DNA of 64,000 nucleotides from Candidatus Enteromonas sp. (GCA_034171505.1 JAXFGC010000006.1:11382-75381); one strand, 5' to 3'; counted from the stretch's first letter, positions 4,158-13,999 are shown. Notes: generated from the letters alone by a model not told the origin. Translations and numbers: made by a program.

Positions 4158-5124
4158 AGAATACGTCGCCAAATACCAACCCCTTGTTTTTCAGACGTTT
4201 TCGAACGCCTTGAATTCCAACCGCCTTTCGCACGCCTATTTGCTTTCGGGGGAATCGGGTGTCCCGTTGAAGGAAACCGCGATTTACCTCGCGAAATCCA
4301 TTTTATGCGACCACCCCACCCCTTTCGCCGATCTCTCTTGTCGGACTTGTCGGCGAATTGACGAGGGGCAGTATCCCGATTTCATCTTCATCGACGGAAG
4401 CGAAGGTTCCATCAAAAAAGAGGACGTCGCTTACCTGCTCTCTTCCTTCCAGCAAACCGCGATTGAGAAAAAAGGATTGCTCGTCTACGTCATCAACGAA
4501 CTTGAGAATATGACGGTCGAAGCCATCAACAGTATCCTTAAGTTCCTCGAAGAACCCCCTCCGAGCACCTTTGCGATATTGACCACTCGAAACGCATCGA
4601 AGATTCTCCCGACCATCGTCTCCCGTTGCGAAACCATCCGCATGATGCTCGTTCCCCAAGAGGAAGTGAAGAAAGAGGCCATCGCCTTGGGGGTGGATCC
4701 CCTGGACGCGGAGATTCTCTCTTTCTTCCATAACGACGCAGGGCTCGCCAAAGAATACGCGGAGGATGAAGATTACACCGCGACGAAGGAATGTTTCCTC
4801 ACTTCCCTCGAATCATTCGAAAGAGGGGAGGCGTATGCGCGTTTTGTGATGGAGAAGGACATTATCCCCATCGTCAATTCCAAGAAAAACGCGCGCTTCT
4901 TCTTTGACATGATGACCCTTGCCCTCAAGGATATCGTCCGCCTCTCCCAAGGAGGGGAAATCGCCTTGACGAGTTATTTGCCCACCCTTCAAGCCACCCT
5001 ACCCGCCTTGAAGAACCCCGATAAAGCCCTCATGTCCACGATGACATTGCGAGGGGAAATCGAGAGCAACATCCAAATCGGCTTGTTGCTCATTCACCTC
5101 ATTCACGAATTATTTCAGGAGTAA
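4147..5124 (+). CDS. holB: DNA polymerase III subunit delta prime
   Basis: SHAYLLSG in place of a Walker A, Zn-like CRTCRRI, IVSRCETI sensor motif, and the position after tmk. Confidence 0.85.
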   Translation: MAIEEYVAKYQPLVFQTFSNALNSNRLSHAYLLSGESGVPLKETAIYLAKSILCDHPTPFADLSCRTCRRIDEGQYPDFIFIDGSEGSIKKEDVAYLLSSFQQTAIEKKGLLVYVINELENMTVEAINSILKFLEEPPPSTFAILTTRNASKILPTIVSRCETIRMMLVPQEEVKKEAIALGVDPLDAEILSFFHNDAGLAKEYAEDEDYTATKECFLTSLESFERGEAYARFVMEKDIIPIVNSKKNARFFFDMMTLALKDIVRLSQGGEIALTSYLPTLQATLPALKNPDKALMSTMTLRGEIESNIQIGLLLIHLIHELFQE

Positions 5125-7198: not shown

Positions 7199-10100
7199 TT
7201 AATTGGCAGAATCCGTTGGAACTTCAAGCGCAGCAATGCGCTTTTTTTCTTCGTGAATCGAAAGGCCAAGACGAACGCCCGCATACCCAAGAACAAGAAG
7301 CATGCCAACCACCCATAAAGCGGAGGAGAAGTTGCTATATGGAGTCGAGTAACGGAGTTCGTAACGAAGCATCAAAGGATTGCCATCTTCGTCCAAAGCG
7401 TGAGGTGCGACAAATCCCACCAATCCCCCATTGAGTTTGAGCATTTGGCACTTTTTCTTTTCTCCGTTTGGCAAAGTCGCGGTGGCCTGCCATCCGGGAT
7501 CATAACCAATACAGGTAGTCACCAAACGATCCTCATCGTAAGCGGTATCGAAGGTGAACACGTTCGTATCGTAAGAAACGTTTTGAAGCTTATCCTGCTG
7601 AATGATGTCTTGCTTGGCACGCCAAGAAGAATAGGGGACCGCACGCAAATAGAGATCCCGGGGGTTGAATTGAATGGTGGGGTAACGCGAATTGCCGGGG
7701 TAGCAGAAGACAATTGCTTTCGCGCGTCCCTTTGCGTATAACCCGAAACTCGCGCGCGAATATCCATAATATGCGTGCCCGCTGTCCACCTTTCGGGCTC
7801 CATCGAACATGTTGTATTCGAAGCAAAGGACGTCATTTTCTTTCTTCAAGGTTCCATCTTCGTTATAGGAATCTCCAATCACGTAGACACGGGGGACCGC
7901 GTTGTAATAGTCCGAAACATTCGAAGAGGAGTAACAGGAATTGTAGAAGAACATATCAAAGTAGGTGCCTTTTTTATCTCCGTTGAAGTATTCGCCCGTT
8001 TCCGGAGTGAAGGCGACCATTCCTTTATCACGAAGAATCGTGGTTCGGTTTGTGATTTGGTCTTTGTCTTCGTAATGATTGAGGAAAAAGCCTAGGCCCT
8101 CTTCGTAATAAGAGGCATTGACGTTTGGAACCATGAGGTCCCCATCGCTGACGGTGTAATAATCCGCACGAAGACGGAGGGAGGAACCCGTGTTGTAGAT
8201 TTCACTGCTAGGCAAAATATCCGGAATTTCTTCTTTGACCGCGAAGTTTTCGGGGAGTTCTTCCCCTTCCTTGACGATCGCTCCTTCGGTGATGACATCA
8301 CCAAAACGGAGAAGTTCCCGGAACCCCCGTTCTCCCCCGCGCAAGGAAGTGAAGTTGGTCGCGTCACTGGTTTCGGACGTGTGGACAAGGGAATAAATTT
8401 GGTTCGAATCCACCGCGTAACCGAGTTGTGGGCGGGCGGTGTCAGGGACACGGTAAAGGCGCGAACGATTGGGGTCGGAGGTAGCTCCCACGACTTCTTC
8501 CGCTTCAAACGGGACGTTCGGAGTCGGAAACAGGGACGACCCATCCGCGAGTTTCCAAGCCGAATAGGAGTTGGAGACCTGGTAATAACGATACCCTAAC
8601 GCGGAGTCGGTCCCTTCGCGTTTATTCGCGTAATAACCACTCCAAGAGGCGTTTTTGATTCCGCTCGTGCCGTAAGCTTCGCCCAAGGTGCTGCTTCCGG
8701 ATTTCATTTGGTTGGCGACCGCGAATTCCTCGACGTCAAAATTCATCAACGAATGGAATTCCGCGGAGGCGTTGAGCCCACCGACACGGTGAGAGTATTT
8801 ATTGCCAACGCAGTAATCGGCGTACGTACGGGCGTAAGGGGCTTCCGAGGAATCGATCGCCTCCGCAATCAAGGTGATGTTTTCACGGTTGCTTGCTCCT
8901 CCCGCAAAAGAATATTGATAACTCCAAAGGCCATCGTAGGCATAAGCCAAATTGCCCATGACGATGGCTTCCACCGCGACGGAAGCAAGGAAAGTCTTTG
9001 GCAACCACTTCTTCCTTTGACCGGCGATGAGCAAGACCGAATCAATTCCGACAAGCGCCAACTGATAATAGAAATACCACGCAGAAGCGATGTTATTGTT
9101 GTAAATTTCGGATGCGGTGACGTAACTCGATTGCCAATATGTGAGGTTATTGGGGTTGTATGGATCCCGCGGGAAAGAGACCCCGTTTAGTAAATGTTCG
9201 GTGAGATAGAATGTGATGACGGTTCCCGCGATGGCGAGGACCCCTGCCAAAACGGGCATGTATTTCGGGGCTTCTTGCCGCTGATCAAATCCCCAGGCAC
9301 AGTAATAGGTGATGAGGGGGATCAAAACGATGAACCAGCGTCCGTAACCATTCCCCGTAAAGGCGTAGAAAAAGAAATACGAGAAGTTGGTGAATACGGC
9401 ATAGACGCAGAGTAATACCGCCACCAAGTGAAGACCCTTTCTTTGACGGATGGACTCAAGCAACGCCATGAAGAACAAAATGACGCAAGGGGTATAGCAA
9501 AACAAAGAACTCGTCCAAGCGTCGTATCCGCTTCGAGCAAGAGGCAAGGCAATATGGCCCGCGGTCGGGAAAAAGAACGAGAGCATCCCCATGAGTTCGC
9601 GTCCAGGATGATCGCCAACCATTTCAAAAATGAGGCTGAAACAATGACGGAAATCCATCTCTTTGAACGCCCCAATTACGGCATTCAGATACGCACTGCC
9701 AATCGAGGATCCGCGTCCGGAAAGGGAAGATTCGCGAACCGAAGGAAGCAAAGAGAAGGCCGAAAGCAGGATGCCAACCGCGAAGGCGGCCACCCCCATC
9801 GCTATCACCGCCCCGTTTTCCTTCGCGGTTCGCTGATTCAACGTTGTGAAATAACGCCATAAGGCGTAAATCACTCCAAAAATACAAGCGACCACCAAAA
9901 AGAAGAAGGAACTAATGCCTTCGAGAAATACCCCAAGAACCAAAACCAAGGGTTTCCGTTCCTTGATGACCCGTTCAATTCCCCAAAGAATCATGGGGAT
10001 GTATATGGCCGCGCTTAAGAAACTTGGGAATCCAACAAAGAAGGATACGTATCCCGAAAGCGCGGCGGCAAGCGCGGCGAACCGAGCCGTCCATTCTTTA

Positions 10101-10564
10101 ATCCCCATGTACTTCAAATAGCAACGGGTGAGCAATGCGGCACAGACGATTTTGACCGCGGTGAGAATCGCGAATAATTGGGGAATCCAGGCTTTGGGGA
10201 ACAAAGCCATCACAATCACGAAGGGATCGAATAGCCCATAGTAACTATTCGAGCCAATCGAATCGGTGCCAATCCAAGTGGCGAAGTCATACAAAGGGAA
10301 CTTGCCTGTGGTGAAGAAGGTTCGCCAAGCATCGTGATAGGTGTAGGCAAAAGGGACGTATTGCCAGGTGTAGTCCCAATTCAACAGTTGGGTAAATGAA
10401 TTGGCGAAAAGAGAGTAACCAATCCACCCCAAGGCAACGAGAAATACGAGAAGGCCGTAATAGAAAAGCGAATCCGCGCGAAAAAGGAAACCGCAATGAC
10501 GGTGGAGGAAATCACCGCTATGTTTACCGCGCAAGGAACGGAGGGAGGACGTCGACGAACTCAT
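7199..10564 (-). CDS. YfhO family polytopic membrane protein (putative glycosyltransferase), 1121 aa
   Basis: The N-terminal half is multi-TM with a YfhO-like start (LLNWDYTWQYVPFAYTYHDAWRTFFTTGKFPLYDFATWIGTD...YYGLFDPF). A large soluble region and a C-terminal TM follow. ATGA overlap with the upstream PII-like gene. Confidence 0.75.
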   Translation of the reverse strand: MSSSTSSLRSLRGKHSGDFLHRHCGFLFRADSLFYYGLLVFLVALGWIGYSLFANSFTQLLNWDYTWQYVPFAYTYHDAWRTFFTTGKFPLYDFATWIGTDSIGSNSYYGLFDPFVIVMALFPKAWIPQLFAILTAVKIVCAALLTRCYLKYMGIKEWTARFAALAAALSGYVSFFVGFPSFLSAAIYIPMILWGIERVIKERKPLVLVLGVFLEGISSFFFLVVACIFGVIYALWRYFTTLNQRTAKENGAVIAMGVAAFAVGILLSAFSLLPSVRESSLSGRGSSIGSAYLNAVIGAFKEMDFRHCFSLIFEMVGDHPGRELMGMLSFFFPTAGHIALPLARSGYDAWTSSLFCYTPCVILFFMALLESIRQRKGLHLVAVLLCVYAVFTNFSYFFFYAFTGNGYGRWFIVLIPLITYYCAWGFDQRQEAPKYMPVLAGVLAIAGTVITFYLTEHLLNGVSFPRDPYNPNNLTYWQSSYVTASEIYNNNIASAWYFYYQLALVGIDSVLLIAGQRKKWLPKTFLASVAVEAIVMGNLAYAYDGLWSYQYSFAGGASNRENITLIAEAIDSSEAPYARTYADYCVGNKYSHRVGGLNASAEFHSLMNFDVEEFAVANQMKSGSSTLGEAYGTSGIKNASWSGYYANKREGTDSALGYRYYQVSNSYSAWKLADGSSLFPTPNVPFEAEEVVGATSDPNRSRLYRVPDTARPQLGYAVDSNQIYSLVHTSETSDATNFTSLRGGERGFRELLRFGDVITEGAIVKEGEELPENFAVKEEIPDILPSSEIYNTGSSLRLRADYYTVSDGDLMVPNVNASYYEEGLGFFLNHYEDKDQITNRTTILRDKGMVAFTPETGEYFNGDKKGTYFDMFFYNSCYSSSNVSDYYNAVPRVYVIGDSYNEDGTLKKENDVLCFEYNMFDGARKVDSGHAYYGYSRASFGLYAKGRAKAIVFCYPGNSRYPTIQFNPRDLYLRAVPYSSWRAKQDIIQQDKLQNVSYDTNVFTFDTAYDEDRLVTTCIGYDPGWQATATLPNGEKKKCQMLKLNGGLVGFVAPHALDEDGNPLMLRYELRYSTPYSNFSSALWVVGMLLVLGYAGVRLGLSIHEEKKRIAALEVPTDSAN

Positions 10565-10947
10565 TGATTCTCTTTCGGAAGCGGAGCTTGGGGAGCCACG
10601 ACTTCTTCTTTCTCCTCGGGTTCTTCTTCCTTCTTTTCTTCGGAAAGGCCAACAACGTCACTGACGGGAAGGGCAAAGGCGATGCCCATCCCCTTGGTAT
10701 TCATGCCAGCTCCCGCGTTGATCGCGCTTAAAACGTCATCGCGTATTTCACGGGGGACCAAAATCAAGACGATCTCTTTCTCGGGAGTCACGGTCACCCC
10801 AAAGAACGCCTCGGCTTCCTTGTTGCCAGAGCCGCGTCCTGTTAAGACGGTCCCCCCACGGGCACCCGCGGTTTTCGCGGCTTCCATGACGAGATCGGTG
10901 AATCCACGGTTTACGATGGATAAGATGGCGCAATAAGGTTCGTTCAT
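10561..10947 (-). CDS. PII-like signal-transduction protein (copy B) with an acidic E/K/P tail
   Basis: Beta-alpha-beta-beta-alpha-beta pattern: ILSIVNRG..DLVMEAAKTAGARGGTVLTGRGSG...KEIVLILVPREIRDDVLSAINAGAG...GIAFALPV. ATGA overlaps on both sides. Confidence 0.7.
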   Translation of the reverse strand: MNEPYCAILSIVNRGFTDLVMEAAKTAGARGGTVLTGRGSGNKEAEAFFGVTVTPEKEIVLILVPREIRDDVLSAINAGAGMNTKGMGIAFALPVSDVVGLSEEKKEEEPEEKEEVVAPQAPLPKENQ

Positions 10948-11351
10948 TGACTTTTCCTCCGAGATTTGGGAAGGGGGTGTTCGAAGTGCCGGCTGTTGGA
11001 GAGCATTTTATAGATGCTGACCCCAGCCACGGAATCCAAGGGAGTGATGAAGGCGATTCCCGCGGAGAGAGGGCTCAACGAGAAGCGCTCGCTTAACGCG
11101 GTTCGAAGCGTTGGCCAGGCATCCATCCGGACGATGCTGATAACGACGTCTTTATGCAGGGTGCCTGCCCCGAGAATTTCATAGAATTCGTTGGGGGCAG
11201 TGCCGTTTCCATGTAGGAAGAAGGTCGCATAGGCCCCAGCGTTTTTGATAAGGGTCGAAATGGCCTCCCCTTGGCCTTTGGCGACGACGCTGACCAGAAA
11301 ATACAAAGGGGTTAAGCGGTGGGTTTGATCGTAACGTAATGGTTGTTGCAT
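10944..11351 (-). CDS. PII-like signal-transduction protein (copy A)
   Basis: LYFLVSVVAKGQGEAISTLIKNAGAYATFFLHGNGT...DVVISIVRMDAWPTLRTALSERF...GIAFITPL. I trimmed the start from TTG 11369 to ATG 11351, which has a GGGAGGAA SD and lies 1 nt after the DUF1538 stop. Confidence 0.65.
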   Translation of the reverse strand: MQQPLRYDQTHRLTPLYFLVSVVAKGQGEAISTLIKNAGAYATFFLHGNGTAPNEFYEILGAGTLHKDVVISIVRMDAWPTLRTALSERFSLSPLSAGIAFITPLDSVAGVSIYKMLSNSRHFEHPLPKSRRKSQ

Positions 11352-11352
11352 A

Positions 11353-12954
11353 TCATTCCTCCCAAACAAAATGGACGATTTGGTCGTCGTCTTCCTCGAC
11401 CAAACGGCGTCTGGCCCTCGCTAAAGCGGCATTGGCCTTCAATTTGCTCGTTAAGCCTAGAGCCTGTAAAACAATGAGGGGCATCATGGCAACGAGGGAC
11501 ACCAAACCAAATCCATAGAGATAGACGTCTTGTCCTTGGGCATAGGCAAAGCCGATGCAGAAAGGCAAAACGAAGGTTGAGGTCATCGGACCGGAGGCAA
11601 CTCCGCCCGAATCAAACGCCATCGCGGTATAAATCGGGGGCACCAAAAAACTTAAGACAAAGGCGAGGATGTACCCCGGGATCAAGTAATATGCAATCGT
11701 GAATTCGAAGTGGGAACGAAGCAAATGGAGGACGACCGCGACCCCAATGGAAATGGACAAAACAAAGAGGACGGTACGGGATTTGATCGTCCCTTCGCTG
11801 ACCTCCTCGATTTGGTGGACGAGGACGTGAACCGCCGGTTCGGCTAAGACGCCGAAGATACCAAAACACGCCCCAAGAAGCAAAGCCACCCAGAACATAT
11901 CCGAATTCGAACCAAGAGCCTGGCCGAGTTTGGATGCGATCGGCATGAACCCCGCTTCAACCGCGGAAAGGAAGAAGACCAAACCCACATAAGTGACCAA
12001 CATGCCAAGGGCGATTCGGAAAATCTTGGTCCACTTCAACCGCAGGAACAGGAAGTTATATATAAGGAAGAAAAGCAAGATGGGCCCTACCGACAAGGCG
12101 ACGGAGGACAAAGAAGAAAGAAGCGCGTGCCCAAAGTTCGTCCCCAAGCTATCGGAAATCTTCGACAAGGGATCCGCGTACTCGCCCATGGAGGGCAATT
12201 CTTGACCAAGCCCCTTCATGATCATCGCGATGACGATGACGGCCAAAATCGGCCCAACAGAACATAACGCCGTCAAGCCGAACGAATCGCTGGAGTTGTT
12301 GCTTCGGTGGCTCGCCGCGCACCCCAAACCAAATCCGAGCAAGAAAGGAACGGTGACGGGGCCGGTCGTAACTCCGCCCGAATCAAAACAAATGGGCAGA
12401 AAGCGGGGGTCGATTAAGTAAATCAATGCGAAAGCTAAACCATAAAACGCAAGGAACAATGTATTGAGGTTTTTGCCATACAGTATCCGAACCACCCCAA
12501 CCACGAGGAAGGCGCCAACCCCGATGCCAATGGTCCAGACGATGATGGCCTCGTCTACTCCAATTTGGCTGCTGAGAACAGATAAATCCGGTTCGGCAAC
12601 CGTAACGAGGACGCCCAAAATGAAGGTCATCGCAATAACGAAGAAGAAATTCTTTTTCTTCATCAACGACCCGCCGATTTGGGTACCGATTTCGGACATC
12701 GATTGCTCGGTCCCGACGTTGAAGAGCATCATTCCGATAACAATCATCCCGACCGCGAGAGCGAAGGACAACATATCCATGTCATTGAGTCGGAAGGCAG
12801 GGTCAAATACATCGCTTGGAACGGCAAAACGGAACACCAAAAAGAAGGCCGTGATCGTTAAGGCGATCGGCAAAGTGGACAATACGGATTCCCGTAGTTT
12901 CCCTAACCAATACTTAACGTTTCCCATGGGTCTTCTTCTTATTGACACCTCCAT
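11353..12954 (-). CDS. Internally duplicated DUF1538-family membrane protein
   Basis: About 12 hydrophobic segments. The family-like motif appears twice (FDSGGVTTGPVTVPFLLGFG and FDSGGVASGPMTSTFVLPFCIG). An alternative ATG at 12927 (MGNVKYWLGKL) would shorten the overlap with the upstream gene from 41 nt to 14 nt. Confidence 0.75.
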   Translation of the reverse strand: MEVSIRRRPMGNVKYWLGKLRESVLSTLPIALTITAFFLVFRFAVPSDVFDPAFRLNDMDMLSFALAVGMIVIGMMLFNVGTEQSMSEIGTQIGGSLMKKKNFFFVIAMTFILGVLVTVAEPDLSVLSSQIGVDEAIIVWTIGIGVGAFLVVGVVRILYGKNLNTLFLAFYGLAFALIYLIDPRFLPICFDSGGVTTGPVTVPFLLGFGLGCAASHRSNNSSDSFGLTALCSVGPILAVIVIAMIMKGLGQELPSMGEYADPLSKISDSLGTNFGHALLSSLSSVALSVGPILLFFLIYNFLFLRLKWTKIFRIALGMLVTYVGLVFFLSAVEAGFMPIASKLGQALGSNSDMFWVALLLGACFGIFGVLAEPAVHVLVHQIEEVSEGTIKSRTVLFVLSISIGVAVVLHLLRSHFEFTIAYYLIPGYILAFVLSFLVPPIYTAMAFDSGGVASGPMTSTFVLPFCIGFAYAQGQDVYLYGFGLVSLVAMMPLIVLQALGLTSKLKANAALARARRRLVEEDDDQIVHFVWEE

Positions 12955-13999
12955 ATCGTGCCGCGAGGGCTTCGCGACGCTTTTTGCCGTTTTCGATCTT
13001 TGTTTGTCTGCGGGTCAAGCGATTGTCTTTTTGCTCTTTCTTAACGATTTCACGACGGACGTTTTCCGAAATCGCCGCACCGGAAAACAACGCTTTGAAA
13101 TCTTTGGGGAGGGGGGACTTAATGTCATAGGACTTGCCCGTCAAAGGATGGGTGAAGGCGAGTTCATAGGCGTGGAGGCCGAGGCGCTTCAACGGGTCGG
13201 TCGGTTCGCCGTATTTATCGTCCCCGATAACGTAATGTCCGCGGGATCCGAGTTGGACGCGGATTTGGTTTTTCCTGCCCGAGGCAATGGAGACATCCAA
13301 CAAGGAATAAGGCCCTTTCTGATCGAGAACCTTATAAGAAGTGACCGCGAGTTTTCCCTTTGTTTTGTTTTTCGTAACGTACACCAATTGGAAATTGTCT
13401 TGGGCCAAGTAGTCACGGAAGGTACCGCTTGGCTCCTCCATCTTTCCTTCGACAATCGCATAATAGAAACGTTTGGTAACGACTTCTTGCCACGCGTTTT
13501 GGAGGGCTTCCCGTGTTTCAATGTTTTTGGCAAATACCAAAACACCAGAGGTATCCTCATCCAAACGATGGACGACGAAAATACGAGATTTTGGGGATTT
13601 CGCGGCAATGTAATCCGAAACGATGCGATAGGCGGTTTTGCCCTTTTCCCTTTCGGTGGCCACGCTTAAGAGCCCGGAAGGTTTATCGATTGCGATGATG
13701 TTTTCATCTTCGTAAAGGATGGTGGGGCGCTTCACTTCCTTGCGACGAATGGGACGCTCGGAAACAGTGACGACGTCTTCGGGGTAAATCTTGTAATCAA
13801 ATTGGGATACCATGACCCCTCCCACGGCGACTTGGTGATGCGAAAGGAGGGATTTGACGGTTTTCCTTTCCTTTTCTCCGAGTTTGAACAAAAGGAATTC
13901 CATCAATGTGGTTTCTTTATAGACCTTCCATTCTTTAACGGAACGGGGGTCAACGAGTCCGCGAGTCGGACGGGTGGATTTCTTATCGTTTTTATTCAT
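12914..13999 (-). CDS. RluA-family 23S rRNA/tRNA pseudouridine synthase with an S4 domain and a basic C-terminal tail
   Basis: Catalytic HRLDEDTSGVLVFAKN, an S4-like N-terminus, and QIRVQL. A roughly 55-aa K/R-rich tail (...RREIVKKEQKDNRLTRRQTKIENGKKRRE...KKKTHGKR). Confidence 0.85.
   Translation of the reverse strand: MNKNDKKSTRPTRGLVDPRSVKEWKVYKETTLMEFLLFKLGEKERKTVKSLLSHHQVAVGGVMVSQFDYKIYPEDVVTVSERPIRRKEVKRPTILYEDENIIAIDKPSGLLSVATEREKGKTAYRIVSDYIAAKSPKSRIFVVHRLDEDTSGVLVFAKNIETREALQNAWQEVVTKRFYYAIVEGKMEEPSGTFRDYLAQDNFQLVYVTKNKTKGKLAVTSYKVLDQKGPYSLLDVSIASGRKNQIRVQLGSRGHYVIGDDKYGEPTDPLKRLGLHAYELAFTHPLTGKSYDIKSPLPKDFKALFSGAAISENVRREIVKKEQKDNRLTRRQTKIENGKKRREALAARYGGVNKKKTHGKR

Follow-up and report, generated by a model that had tools for sequence, protein, structure and literature searches.

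The 64,000-nucleotide stretch of DNA analysed here (the whole of it is referred to as the window) comes from Candidatus Enteromonas sp. (GCA_034171505.1 JAXFGC010000006.1:11382-75381) and carries three adjoining genes that code for a membrane protein of the DUF1538 family and for two PII-like proteins. All three lie on the minus strand, as do all other features of the window described below except where stated otherwise. The first gene (11353..12954) contains a maximal open reading frame (ORF) of 533 aa, the product of which matches the DUF1538 model in two stretches (PF07556, E = 4.9e-113). Directly downstream of it lie the genes coding for PII-A (10944..11351; 135 aa, net basic), which is PII-like, has diverged strongly and carries a conserved helix at its C terminus (AGVSIYKMLSNxRxFE), and PII-B (10561..10947; 128 aa, net acidic). 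The stop codon of the DUF1538 gene and the start codon of PII-A read TGA-t-ATG (11349..11355), while the stop of PII-A and the start of PII-B overlap as ATGA (10944..10947), and a GGAGGA Shine-Dalgarno sequence is found 5-8 nt 5' of the PII-A and PII-B starts alike. A first-pass annotation, made by a model from the DNA sequence, had described a 533-aa protein containing the same DUF1538 module and signature twice, followed immediately by two ORFs of ~130 aa. This layout proved correct, including the exact position of the second junction; the first junction has the sequence that had been given for it but spans 11349-11355 instead of 11351-11355.

The whole DUF1538 protein scored 376.1 bits against PF07556, which has a gathering threshold of 22.6 bits. 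Its two halves share 27% identity across 193 aa (BLASTP E = 1e-19), and each is recognized when searched separately (184 and 204 bits), with the N-terminal repeat covering residues 54-245 (12220..12795, E = 2.6e-54 for the half) and the C-terminal repeat corresponding to the best Pfam stretch, residues 292-501 (11452..12081, E = 2.1e-60 for the half). A search for remote Pfam relatives of the two halves returned only noise at E <= 10. Homologues start at the residue equivalent to Met10 (position 12927), which gives a protein of 524 aa instead of 533: the database protein P0126 (524 aa), which is 100% identical to the DUF1538 protein of the window, begins with MGNVKYW, and so does P0127, which is 85% identical. 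Judging from these homologues, Met10 is likely the true start of the transporter.

The signature of the family occurs once in each repeat, as FDSGGVTTGPVTVPF in repeat 1 (12343..12387), where it brings an invariant Asp and a Gly-rich stretch into hydrophobic segment 6, and as FDSGGVASGPMTSTF in repeat 2 (11572..11616). Across 16 homologues, D182 through P194 are invariant in the first signature and D439 through P447 in the second. Another motif recurs at equivalent positions, AEPDLSVL at the end of hydrophobic segment 3 in repeat 1 (12574..12597), with an invariant Glu at the membrane edge, and AEPAVHVL in repeat 2 (11821..11844). Each repeat consequently has two invariant carboxylates, the Glu of its AEP motif and the Asp of its FDSGGVxxGP segment. 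Ion-coupled secondary transporters typically have carboxylates beside breaks rich in glycine, and the invariant carboxylates of both repeats fit with binding of cations and/or protons. Hydropathy averaged over 115 homologues revealed 14 hydrophobic segments. When these were modeled as 14 transmembrane (TM) segments with both termini inside the cell, the summed Lys and Arg residues amounted to 19.1 inside versus 6.5 outside, and the bias reversed between equivalent loops of the two repeats. The positive-inside sums and the reversal between repeats favor an inverted 7+7 repeat, which is probably the topology of the protein.

PII-B is recognized by the Pfam P-II model (PF00543; 33.5 bits for a gathering threshold of 25, E = 5.7e-8). 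Its AlphaFold model, built from an alignment of 54 sequences with a predicted local distance difference test (pLDDT) score of 81, displays the order beta-alpha-beta-beta-alpha-beta, with strands E5-13, E33-38, E56-65 and E88-95 and helices H17-26 and H66-79, and the top Foldseek matches of this model are GlnK and GlnB structures of the PDB (E about 3e-6, 20-30% identity). Twenty-eight positions are at least 90% conserved among 72 B-type sequences, including G28, G31, G32, T33, G39, T40, P55, E56, K57, G86, G88, I89 and F91. The acidic, low-complexity tail reported in the first-pass annotation is present (EEKKEEEPEEKEE, 10603..10641). However, its length is lineage-specific, with 28 aa after G100 here for a median of 14 aa in the 72 homologues, and we rejected the tail as a defining feature of PII-B since neither its length nor its sequence is conserved. 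The recent PDB entry 9p1x, with 12 chains of a 105-aa protein under the name "P-II family nitrogen regulatory protein", matches the PII-B profile weakly (E = 3.8e-4).

PII-A has no Pfam match even at E <= 10 and no sequence match in the PDB. Its AlphaFold model (pLDDT 65) displays the same beta-alpha-beta-beta-alpha-beta order followed by a C-terminal helix at residues 108-118. Of the top 50 Foldseek matches of this model in the PDB, 49 belong to the PII superfamily, the exception being a designed nanoparticle component at rank 40; the matches include SbtB, CPII, GlnK1, PstA and the NIF3 insert, and SbtB structures rank best. Profiles of PII-A and PII-B align to each other over 99 columns with a probability of 97.4% (hhalign, E = 1.5e-11) at 26% identity, and the HMMs of A and B cross-match each other in genomic loci. 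As judged from the modeled fold and from this profile similarity, PII-A is a diverged PII paralogue. The PII-like pattern attributed earlier to both small ORFs, together with their strong divergence from one another, was thus borne out by the models and the profile comparison, while the HMM searches upheld the domain calls for DUF1538 and PII-B and failed to find a Pfam domain in PII-A. Only M1, V23, G50, T51, F90, G98 and Y114 are at least 90% conserved in PII-A. A search of 1.84 billion proteins with the PII-A profile returned 1444 representative clusters, many of which are tandem proteins. One 335-aa database protein (P0265) joins a PII-A-like N-terminal fragment to a TsaD domain, and probably results from a chimeric gene call.

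Both proteins depart from canonical PII at the residues that matter for ligand sensing. Alignment of PII-B with Archaeoglobus (A. fulgidus) GlnB-1, read together with residue conservation in the 72 B-type sequences, revealed that the glycine scaffold of the nucleotide cleft is kept (canonical G24, G27, T29, G35, G37, G87 and G89), along with F92 and the equivalent of Lys58, which corresponds to K57 in PII-B (at least 90% conserved) and to K67 in PII-A (at least 80%). Replaced in PII-B are Arg38 (Asn), Gln39 (Lys or variable), Asp88, Lys90 (Ile), Arg101 (Gly) and Arg103. In the alignment with PDB 3o8w, Gln39 falls on K43, position 38 on N42, Lys/Arg90 on I89, position 101 on G100 and Arg103 on S102, with 3o8w itself having Glu at position 38 and Lys at position 101, where canonical PII has Arg. 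The loops have canonical lengths, with a long T-loop (20 residues in PII-A and 17 in PII-B) and a short B-loop. The B-loop motif TGxxGDGKI is replaced by MNTKGMGIAF in PII-B and by LSPLSAGIAF in PII-A. Neither the PROSITE B-loop pattern (PS00638) nor the pattern for the Tyr51 uridylylation site (PS00496) was found in any of the domains tested, 73 of type A and 73 of type B; a GlnB sequence served as control and gave a match. Gln39, Lys58 and the B-loop TGxxGDGKI define the classical sensing of ATP and 2-oxoglutarate by PII proteins (PMC4316997). By the residues they carry, neither PII-A nor PII-B is a canonical GlnB or GlnK protein, and since PII-B lacks the basic triphosphate-binding residues and Gln39, its ligand is probably other than Mg-ATP/2-oxoglutarate.

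The association of DUF1538 with PII-like genes extends far beyond the window. We retrieved 80 fused-type loci of reference genomes (38-80% identity) with a diverse alignment of fused DUF1538 proteins; their hosts are uncultured gut and rumen Bacilli, Christensenella, Scatosoma, Oscillospiraceae, Lachnospiraceae and Anaeroplasmataceae. An A-type followed by a B-type PII domain lies directly 3' of the transporter gene in 73 of these loci. One further locus (L075) has only the A-type ORF before the contig ends, and the remaining six are cut by contig ends, so that all 74 loci with usable downstream sequence, from Bacilli and Clostridia, are consistent with the order transporter-A-B. A and B are encoded by separate genes in 44 loci and by a single ORF of about 230-290 aa in 29. 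The gap between the transporter and A is -4 nt in 30 of the 73 loci and nearly always between -20 and +24 nt, and nearly all gaps between A and B are between -26 and +12 nt. Two of the fused DUF1538 loci (L008 and L016) come from the same metagenome-assembled genome, RUI057, which implies paralogous copies of the module within one organism.

A second sample of 80 metagenome loci was obtained with a split-type query, in which the two DUF1538 modules are separate proteins, and adjacency was scored by domain coordinates. A single B-type PII lies immediately downstream in 61 of the 65 loci with enough downstream sequence, and two of the four exceptions offer only 332 nt of room. The PII proteins of the split systems score about 100 bits on the B profile versus about 35 bits on the A profile. 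The same two arrangements appeared on RefSeq-annotated plasmids searched by tblastn: Methylocystis and Chelativorans have a split DUF1538 pair followed by one gene annotated as "P-II family nitrogen regulator", and Paraclostridium and Peptoclostridium have a fused DUF1538 gene followed by a 222-aa tandem P-II gene, which extends the linkage over Alphaproteobacteria and Peptostreptococcales. Altogether, adjacency is kept in 135 of 139 loci from several phyla. The linkage of DUF1538 with PII, for which the first-pass annotation had proposed a comparison of genomes, is conserved far beyond chance. Clustering of all ORFs in the 80 fused-type loci yielded no recurrent partner except PII.

The RefSeq name "P-II family nitrogen regulator" would agree with a coincidental operon, in which ordinary nitrogen-regulator PII genes merely happen to stand beside a gene for a membrane protein. 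We consider such a coincidence extremely improbable, given the adjacency in 135 of 139 loci of several phyla, the gene fusions described below, and the absence of both PROSITE PII signatures, Gln39, the B-loop Asp and Lys, and Arg101/103.

Within our samples, the number of PII domains follows the architecture of the transporter, with two domains always accompanying fused transporters and one always accompanying split pairs. We infer that the ancestral module consisted of two DUF1538 subunits and one B-type PII, and that in Firmicutes the transporter genes were fused, the PII gene was duplicated and its upstream copy (A) diverged. PII-B, to whose type the single PII of split systems belongs, appears to be the conserved, ancestral-type partner of DUF1538.

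Fusions, charges and a tail of the transporter all bear on how the components could meet. The fused-type transporters have a C-terminal extension of ~30 residues, a basic stretch followed by an acidic motif, which split-type transporters lack. In the window the motif reads EEDDDQIVHF (11368..11397) and lies in the C-terminal cytoplasmic tail, where it is a candidate docking site for PII-A. The strict pattern Q[IVL][IVLT]H[FLIMVY] was found in 35 of 77 fused-type tails versus none of 80 split-type tails, and it misses near variants such as IISF, IIRF and IIDF that occur among the sampled fused-type tails. PII-A has a net basic charge in 89% of loci and PII-B a net acidic one in 92%; 59 of 73 pairs combine a positive A with a negative B. 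Like B, the lone PII encoded in split systems is acidic. These charge patterns and the acidic tail suggest that PII-A contacts PII-B, the tail of the transporter, or both. The heteromeric A/B unit envisaged in the first-pass annotation gains support from the complementary charges, from the 29 loci with A-B fusions and from a 654-aa database protein (P0297) in which two DUF1538 units, a QVIHF tail, a linker of ~35 residues and PII-A form a single chain. Among the clusters matched by the PII-A profile, the P0297-type fusion was seen in one only, and could be an artefact of assembly or gene calling. Most A-B fused ORFs (loci L018-L041, L045, L047, L050, L056 and L073) retain an internal Met some 8-10 residues ahead of the B domain, at the place where the start codon of an independent B gene would be expected; as a consequence, the cell might make the fusion as well as a B protein initiated on its own.

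The statement that DUF1538 has no experimentally assigned substrate, made in the first-pass annotation, is outdated. UmpAB of Halomonas zhaodongensis is a heterodimer of two DUF1538 proteins, and umpAB expressed alone in E. coli KNabc was reported in 2017 to confer pH-dependent Na+(Li+,K+)/H+ antiport (PMC5484666). The study mentions no PII, and the cloned fragment ended after umpB (PMC5484666). It was the only functional study of the DUF1538 family found in our literature search. Like the protein of the window, UmpAB belongs to PF07556 and comprises two homologous DUF1538 modules of about seven hydrophobic segments each; unlike UmpAB, the window protein has both modules in a single fused chain of 524/533 aa and a C-terminal cytoplasmic tail. 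As far as sequence comparison goes, the relation is at the family level only. By this family precedent, the most likely activity is the exchange of a monovalent cation for H+, an assignment that we make tentatively and to which we give somewhat less than even credence.

A transporter of the same architecture could instead carry something else, e.g. bicarbonate, ammonium, a divalent cation or a small organic ion, with the PII pair reporting the matching metabolic state. The family-level nature of the relation to UmpAB leaves room for this alternative, as do the nitrogen or carbon species carried by the known PII-controlled transporters and the mixed contexts of the proteobacterial plasmids, which have heavy-metal genes in one case and a SulP transporter in another. 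Nevertheless, the only experimental data for the family concern cation/H+ antiport, the invariant carboxylates in both repeats fit binding of a cation or proton, and the module shows no linkage to genes for the assimilation of nitrogen or carbon. A different substrate is therefore possible but, in our estimation, rather unlikely.

In distribution, PII proteins rank with the most widespread of all signal transducers. To our knowledge, few of their transporter targets are mechanistically understood, namely Amt, SbtA and the Nrt and Urt ABC systems. In GlnK-AmtB and SbtB-SbtA the PII protein plugs or locks its transporter, an ammonium channel and a Na+/bicarbonate symporter, respectively, with SbtB responding to adenine nucleotides, and a 2023 review of post-translational transporter control covers Amt, Nrt, Urt and SbtA as PII targets (PMC10710835). 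As in GlnK-AmtB, a PII-family gene is here tightly linked to a transporter gene across phyla, and PII-B resembles GlnK in its fold, its long T-loop and short B-loop and its best PDB fold matches. Unlike GlnK, PII-B is devoid of Tyr51, Gln39, the TGxxGDGKI B-loop and Arg101/103; moreover, the transporter belongs to a different family, two PII paralogues are present instead of one, and the complex and the trimer are in our case predicted. The resemblance to SbtB-SbtA lies in a non-canonical PII-like protein encoded directly downstream of one secondary ion transporter and in the SbtB structures that lead the fold matches of PII-A, whereas no relationship was detected at the sequence level and PII is duplicated or in tandem here. 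PstA/DarA, which binds c-di-AMP, likewise has a PII-like fold, occurs in Firmicutes and, as PstA, is among the fold matches of PII-A. However, PstA has a short T'-loop with GGFL and a long B'-loop (PMC4316997), in contrast with PII-A and PII-B, which have a long T-loop, a short B-loop and no GGFL.

We propose that the locus codes for a DUF1538 secondary ion transporter together with its own dedicated pair of non-canonical PII-type proteins that gate it, an overall picture that we regard as about evenly balanced between right and wrong. For the narrower claim that the PII proteins bind and regulate the transporter directly, we lean moderately toward its being correct; the support for such a complex is indirect and consists of the gene fusions (A-B and P0297). 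According to this model, the transporter would be the single-chain form of a two-subunit DUF1538 unit such as UmpA plus UmpB. PII-B would form a trimer and sense a small ligand in the cleft between its subunits, and its conserved 17-residue T-loop would bind the cytoplasmic face of the transporter and thereby close or lock it, as GlnK does with AmtB and SbtB with SbtA. PII-A, a basic and fast-evolving duplicate of B found only with fused, tail-bearing transporters, would pair with the acidic PII-B and/or the acidic tail, and could act as an adaptor or as a second sensor. The reading of the locus given in the first-pass annotation, a ligand-gated transporter or channel with a heteromeric PII-like regulator, is partly supported, since comparative genomics speaks strongly for the linkage and for a heteromeric PII unit.

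The direction of control could also be reversed. The DUF1538 protein would then be a sensor and an anchor that captures and releases PII according to the flux of its substrate, leaving the PII proteins to control cytoplasmic targets, as in AmtB/GlnK. The same linkage data would be expected, canonical GlnK holds both roles, and the fast evolution of PII-A might suit lineage-specific targets. On the other hand, no third gene is conserved with the module, and the A-B and transporter-A fusions tether PII domains permanently, which is a better fit for a dedicated regulator. We regard sequestration as improbable. Equally improbable, in our view, is that the PII-like proteins are obligate structural subunits, needed for the assembly or function of the transporter rather than acting as ligand-controlled inhibitors. 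Such a role would agree with the near-universal co-occurrence, the tight translational coupling and the fusions, and with the loss of the canonical ATP/2-oxoglutarate residues. It is opposed by the strong conservation of the cleft glycines and of the Lys58 equivalent in PII-B, which argues that ligand binding has been retained, and by the activity of UmpAB alone in E. coli in the absence of a cognate PII (PMC5484666), an argument that is valid only if a PII partner normally accompanies UmpAB.

Several points weigh against gating of a DUF1538 ion transporter by its own PII pair. The case for a DUF1538-PII complex comes from evidence at the gene level, and a PDB sequence search found no DUF1538 structure. 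The confidence of the PII-A model is modest (pLDDT 65). The topology was modeled from hydropathy alone, and a parallel model with 6 TM segments per repeat, in which the sixth segments are treated as re-entrant, performed only slightly worse (Lys plus Arg 17.2 versus 8.4, our own sum of the per-loop values). The transporters in which regulation by PII has been observed to date are trimeric (PMC10710835), and UmpAB was shown as a heterodimer only (PMC5484666). With the equivalog models of UmpA and UmpB (NF041627 and NF041628, cut-offs of 490 and 500), the transporter reached 138.7 and 102.3 bits, and an attempt to map its halves onto UmpA and UmpB was abandoned given that both halves match both models equally (57-78 bits). 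With scores so low and halves so unspecific, no substrate can be transferred with confidence from UmpAB. In addition, KNabc complementation in the same laboratory has assigned Na+/H+ antiport to several unrelated families, so that antiport may not be the physiological activity. Finally, Rfam scans of 22 distant loci at gathering thresholds found no element 5' of the DUF1538 gene that could have given a clue to the substrate.

Our search of the literature, which combined DUF1538, UmpAB or PF07556 with PII and also covered antiporter regulators of tandem or PII-like type, found nothing on this pairing, although the pairing is visible in RefSeq annotation; a methanogen TnSeq preprint turned out to be a false lead. 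The novelty of the pair lies in the family to which its transporter belongs and in the duplication of its PII. More speculatively, DUF1538 plus PII might stand beside Amt-GlnK and SbtA-SbtB as a third class of membrane transporters gated by PII, one that spans phyla and whose regulator would in Firmicutes have become an obligate assembly of two paralogues or tandem domains, e.g. tethered A3 and B3 trimers with A docked on the acidic tail, a ligand other than ATP/2-oxoglutarate, and two signals controlling ion flux. We put this forward as a possibility that is rather doubtful in its full extent. A near-universal DUF1538-PII module would extend the targets of PII by an entire family of transporters, one that gut Firmicutes commonly have and that occurs in Proteobacteria as well. 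It would also provide a series of architectures for the study of PII/target co-evolution, from a split pair with one PII through a fused transporter with a tandem PII or with two PII proteins to a transporter-PII fusion. Furthermore, UmpAB was characterized without a PII partner, so that the study may have overlooked how it is regulated and possibly also what it does physiologically. The annotation "P-II family nitrogen regulator" is probably misleading for PII genes linked to DUF1538.

The genes on either side of the module are lineage-specific neighbors. Downstream, a gene coding for a YfhO-like membrane glycosyltransferase (7199..10564; 1121 aa, PF09586, E = 4.8e-35) starts within the stop codon of PII-B through another ATGA overlap (10561..10564); upstream, a gene coding for an RluA-family pseudouridine synthase (12914..13999) overlaps the start of the DUF1538 gene. 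The RluA-like protein exceeds the gathering score of PF00849 and stands just below the cut-off of TIGR00005 (190.1 for 192.7 bits, E = 5.4e-56). YfhO adjoins the module in 36 and RluA in 48 of the 80 fused-type loci, in both cases almost all in the Bacilli clade, and the YfhO-like gene is outside the core module. In the window, six genes coding for patatin-like, RluA-like, double DUF1538, PII-A, PII-B and YfhO-like proteins are chained by overlapping or abutting starts and stops between 7199 and 15125. A scan of this operon for promoter-like and terminator-like motifs gave counts at chance level, and hence no boundary was placed inside the chain. A 401-aa ORF on the plus strand (12464-13669), antisense to the DUF1538 and RluA-like genes, is most likely a functionless shadow ORF.

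The Rfam scans also recorded riboswitches and T-box leaders in the flanks of some of the distant loci, at 8386-8570 (+) in L072, at about 4550-4712 (-) in L060, L061 and L062, and at 11759-11914 (-) in L063. The riboswitches are of the cobalamin, glycine and M-box classes; like the T-box leaders, they are associated with neighboring genes or the opposite strand and not with the DUF1538 module. As for the YfhO-like protein, its best match to the YfhO model covers residues 40-284 only, most of the protein being without an assigned domain, and it is weakly similar to the glycosyltransferases PgfM1 and PgfM2 of Streptococcus.

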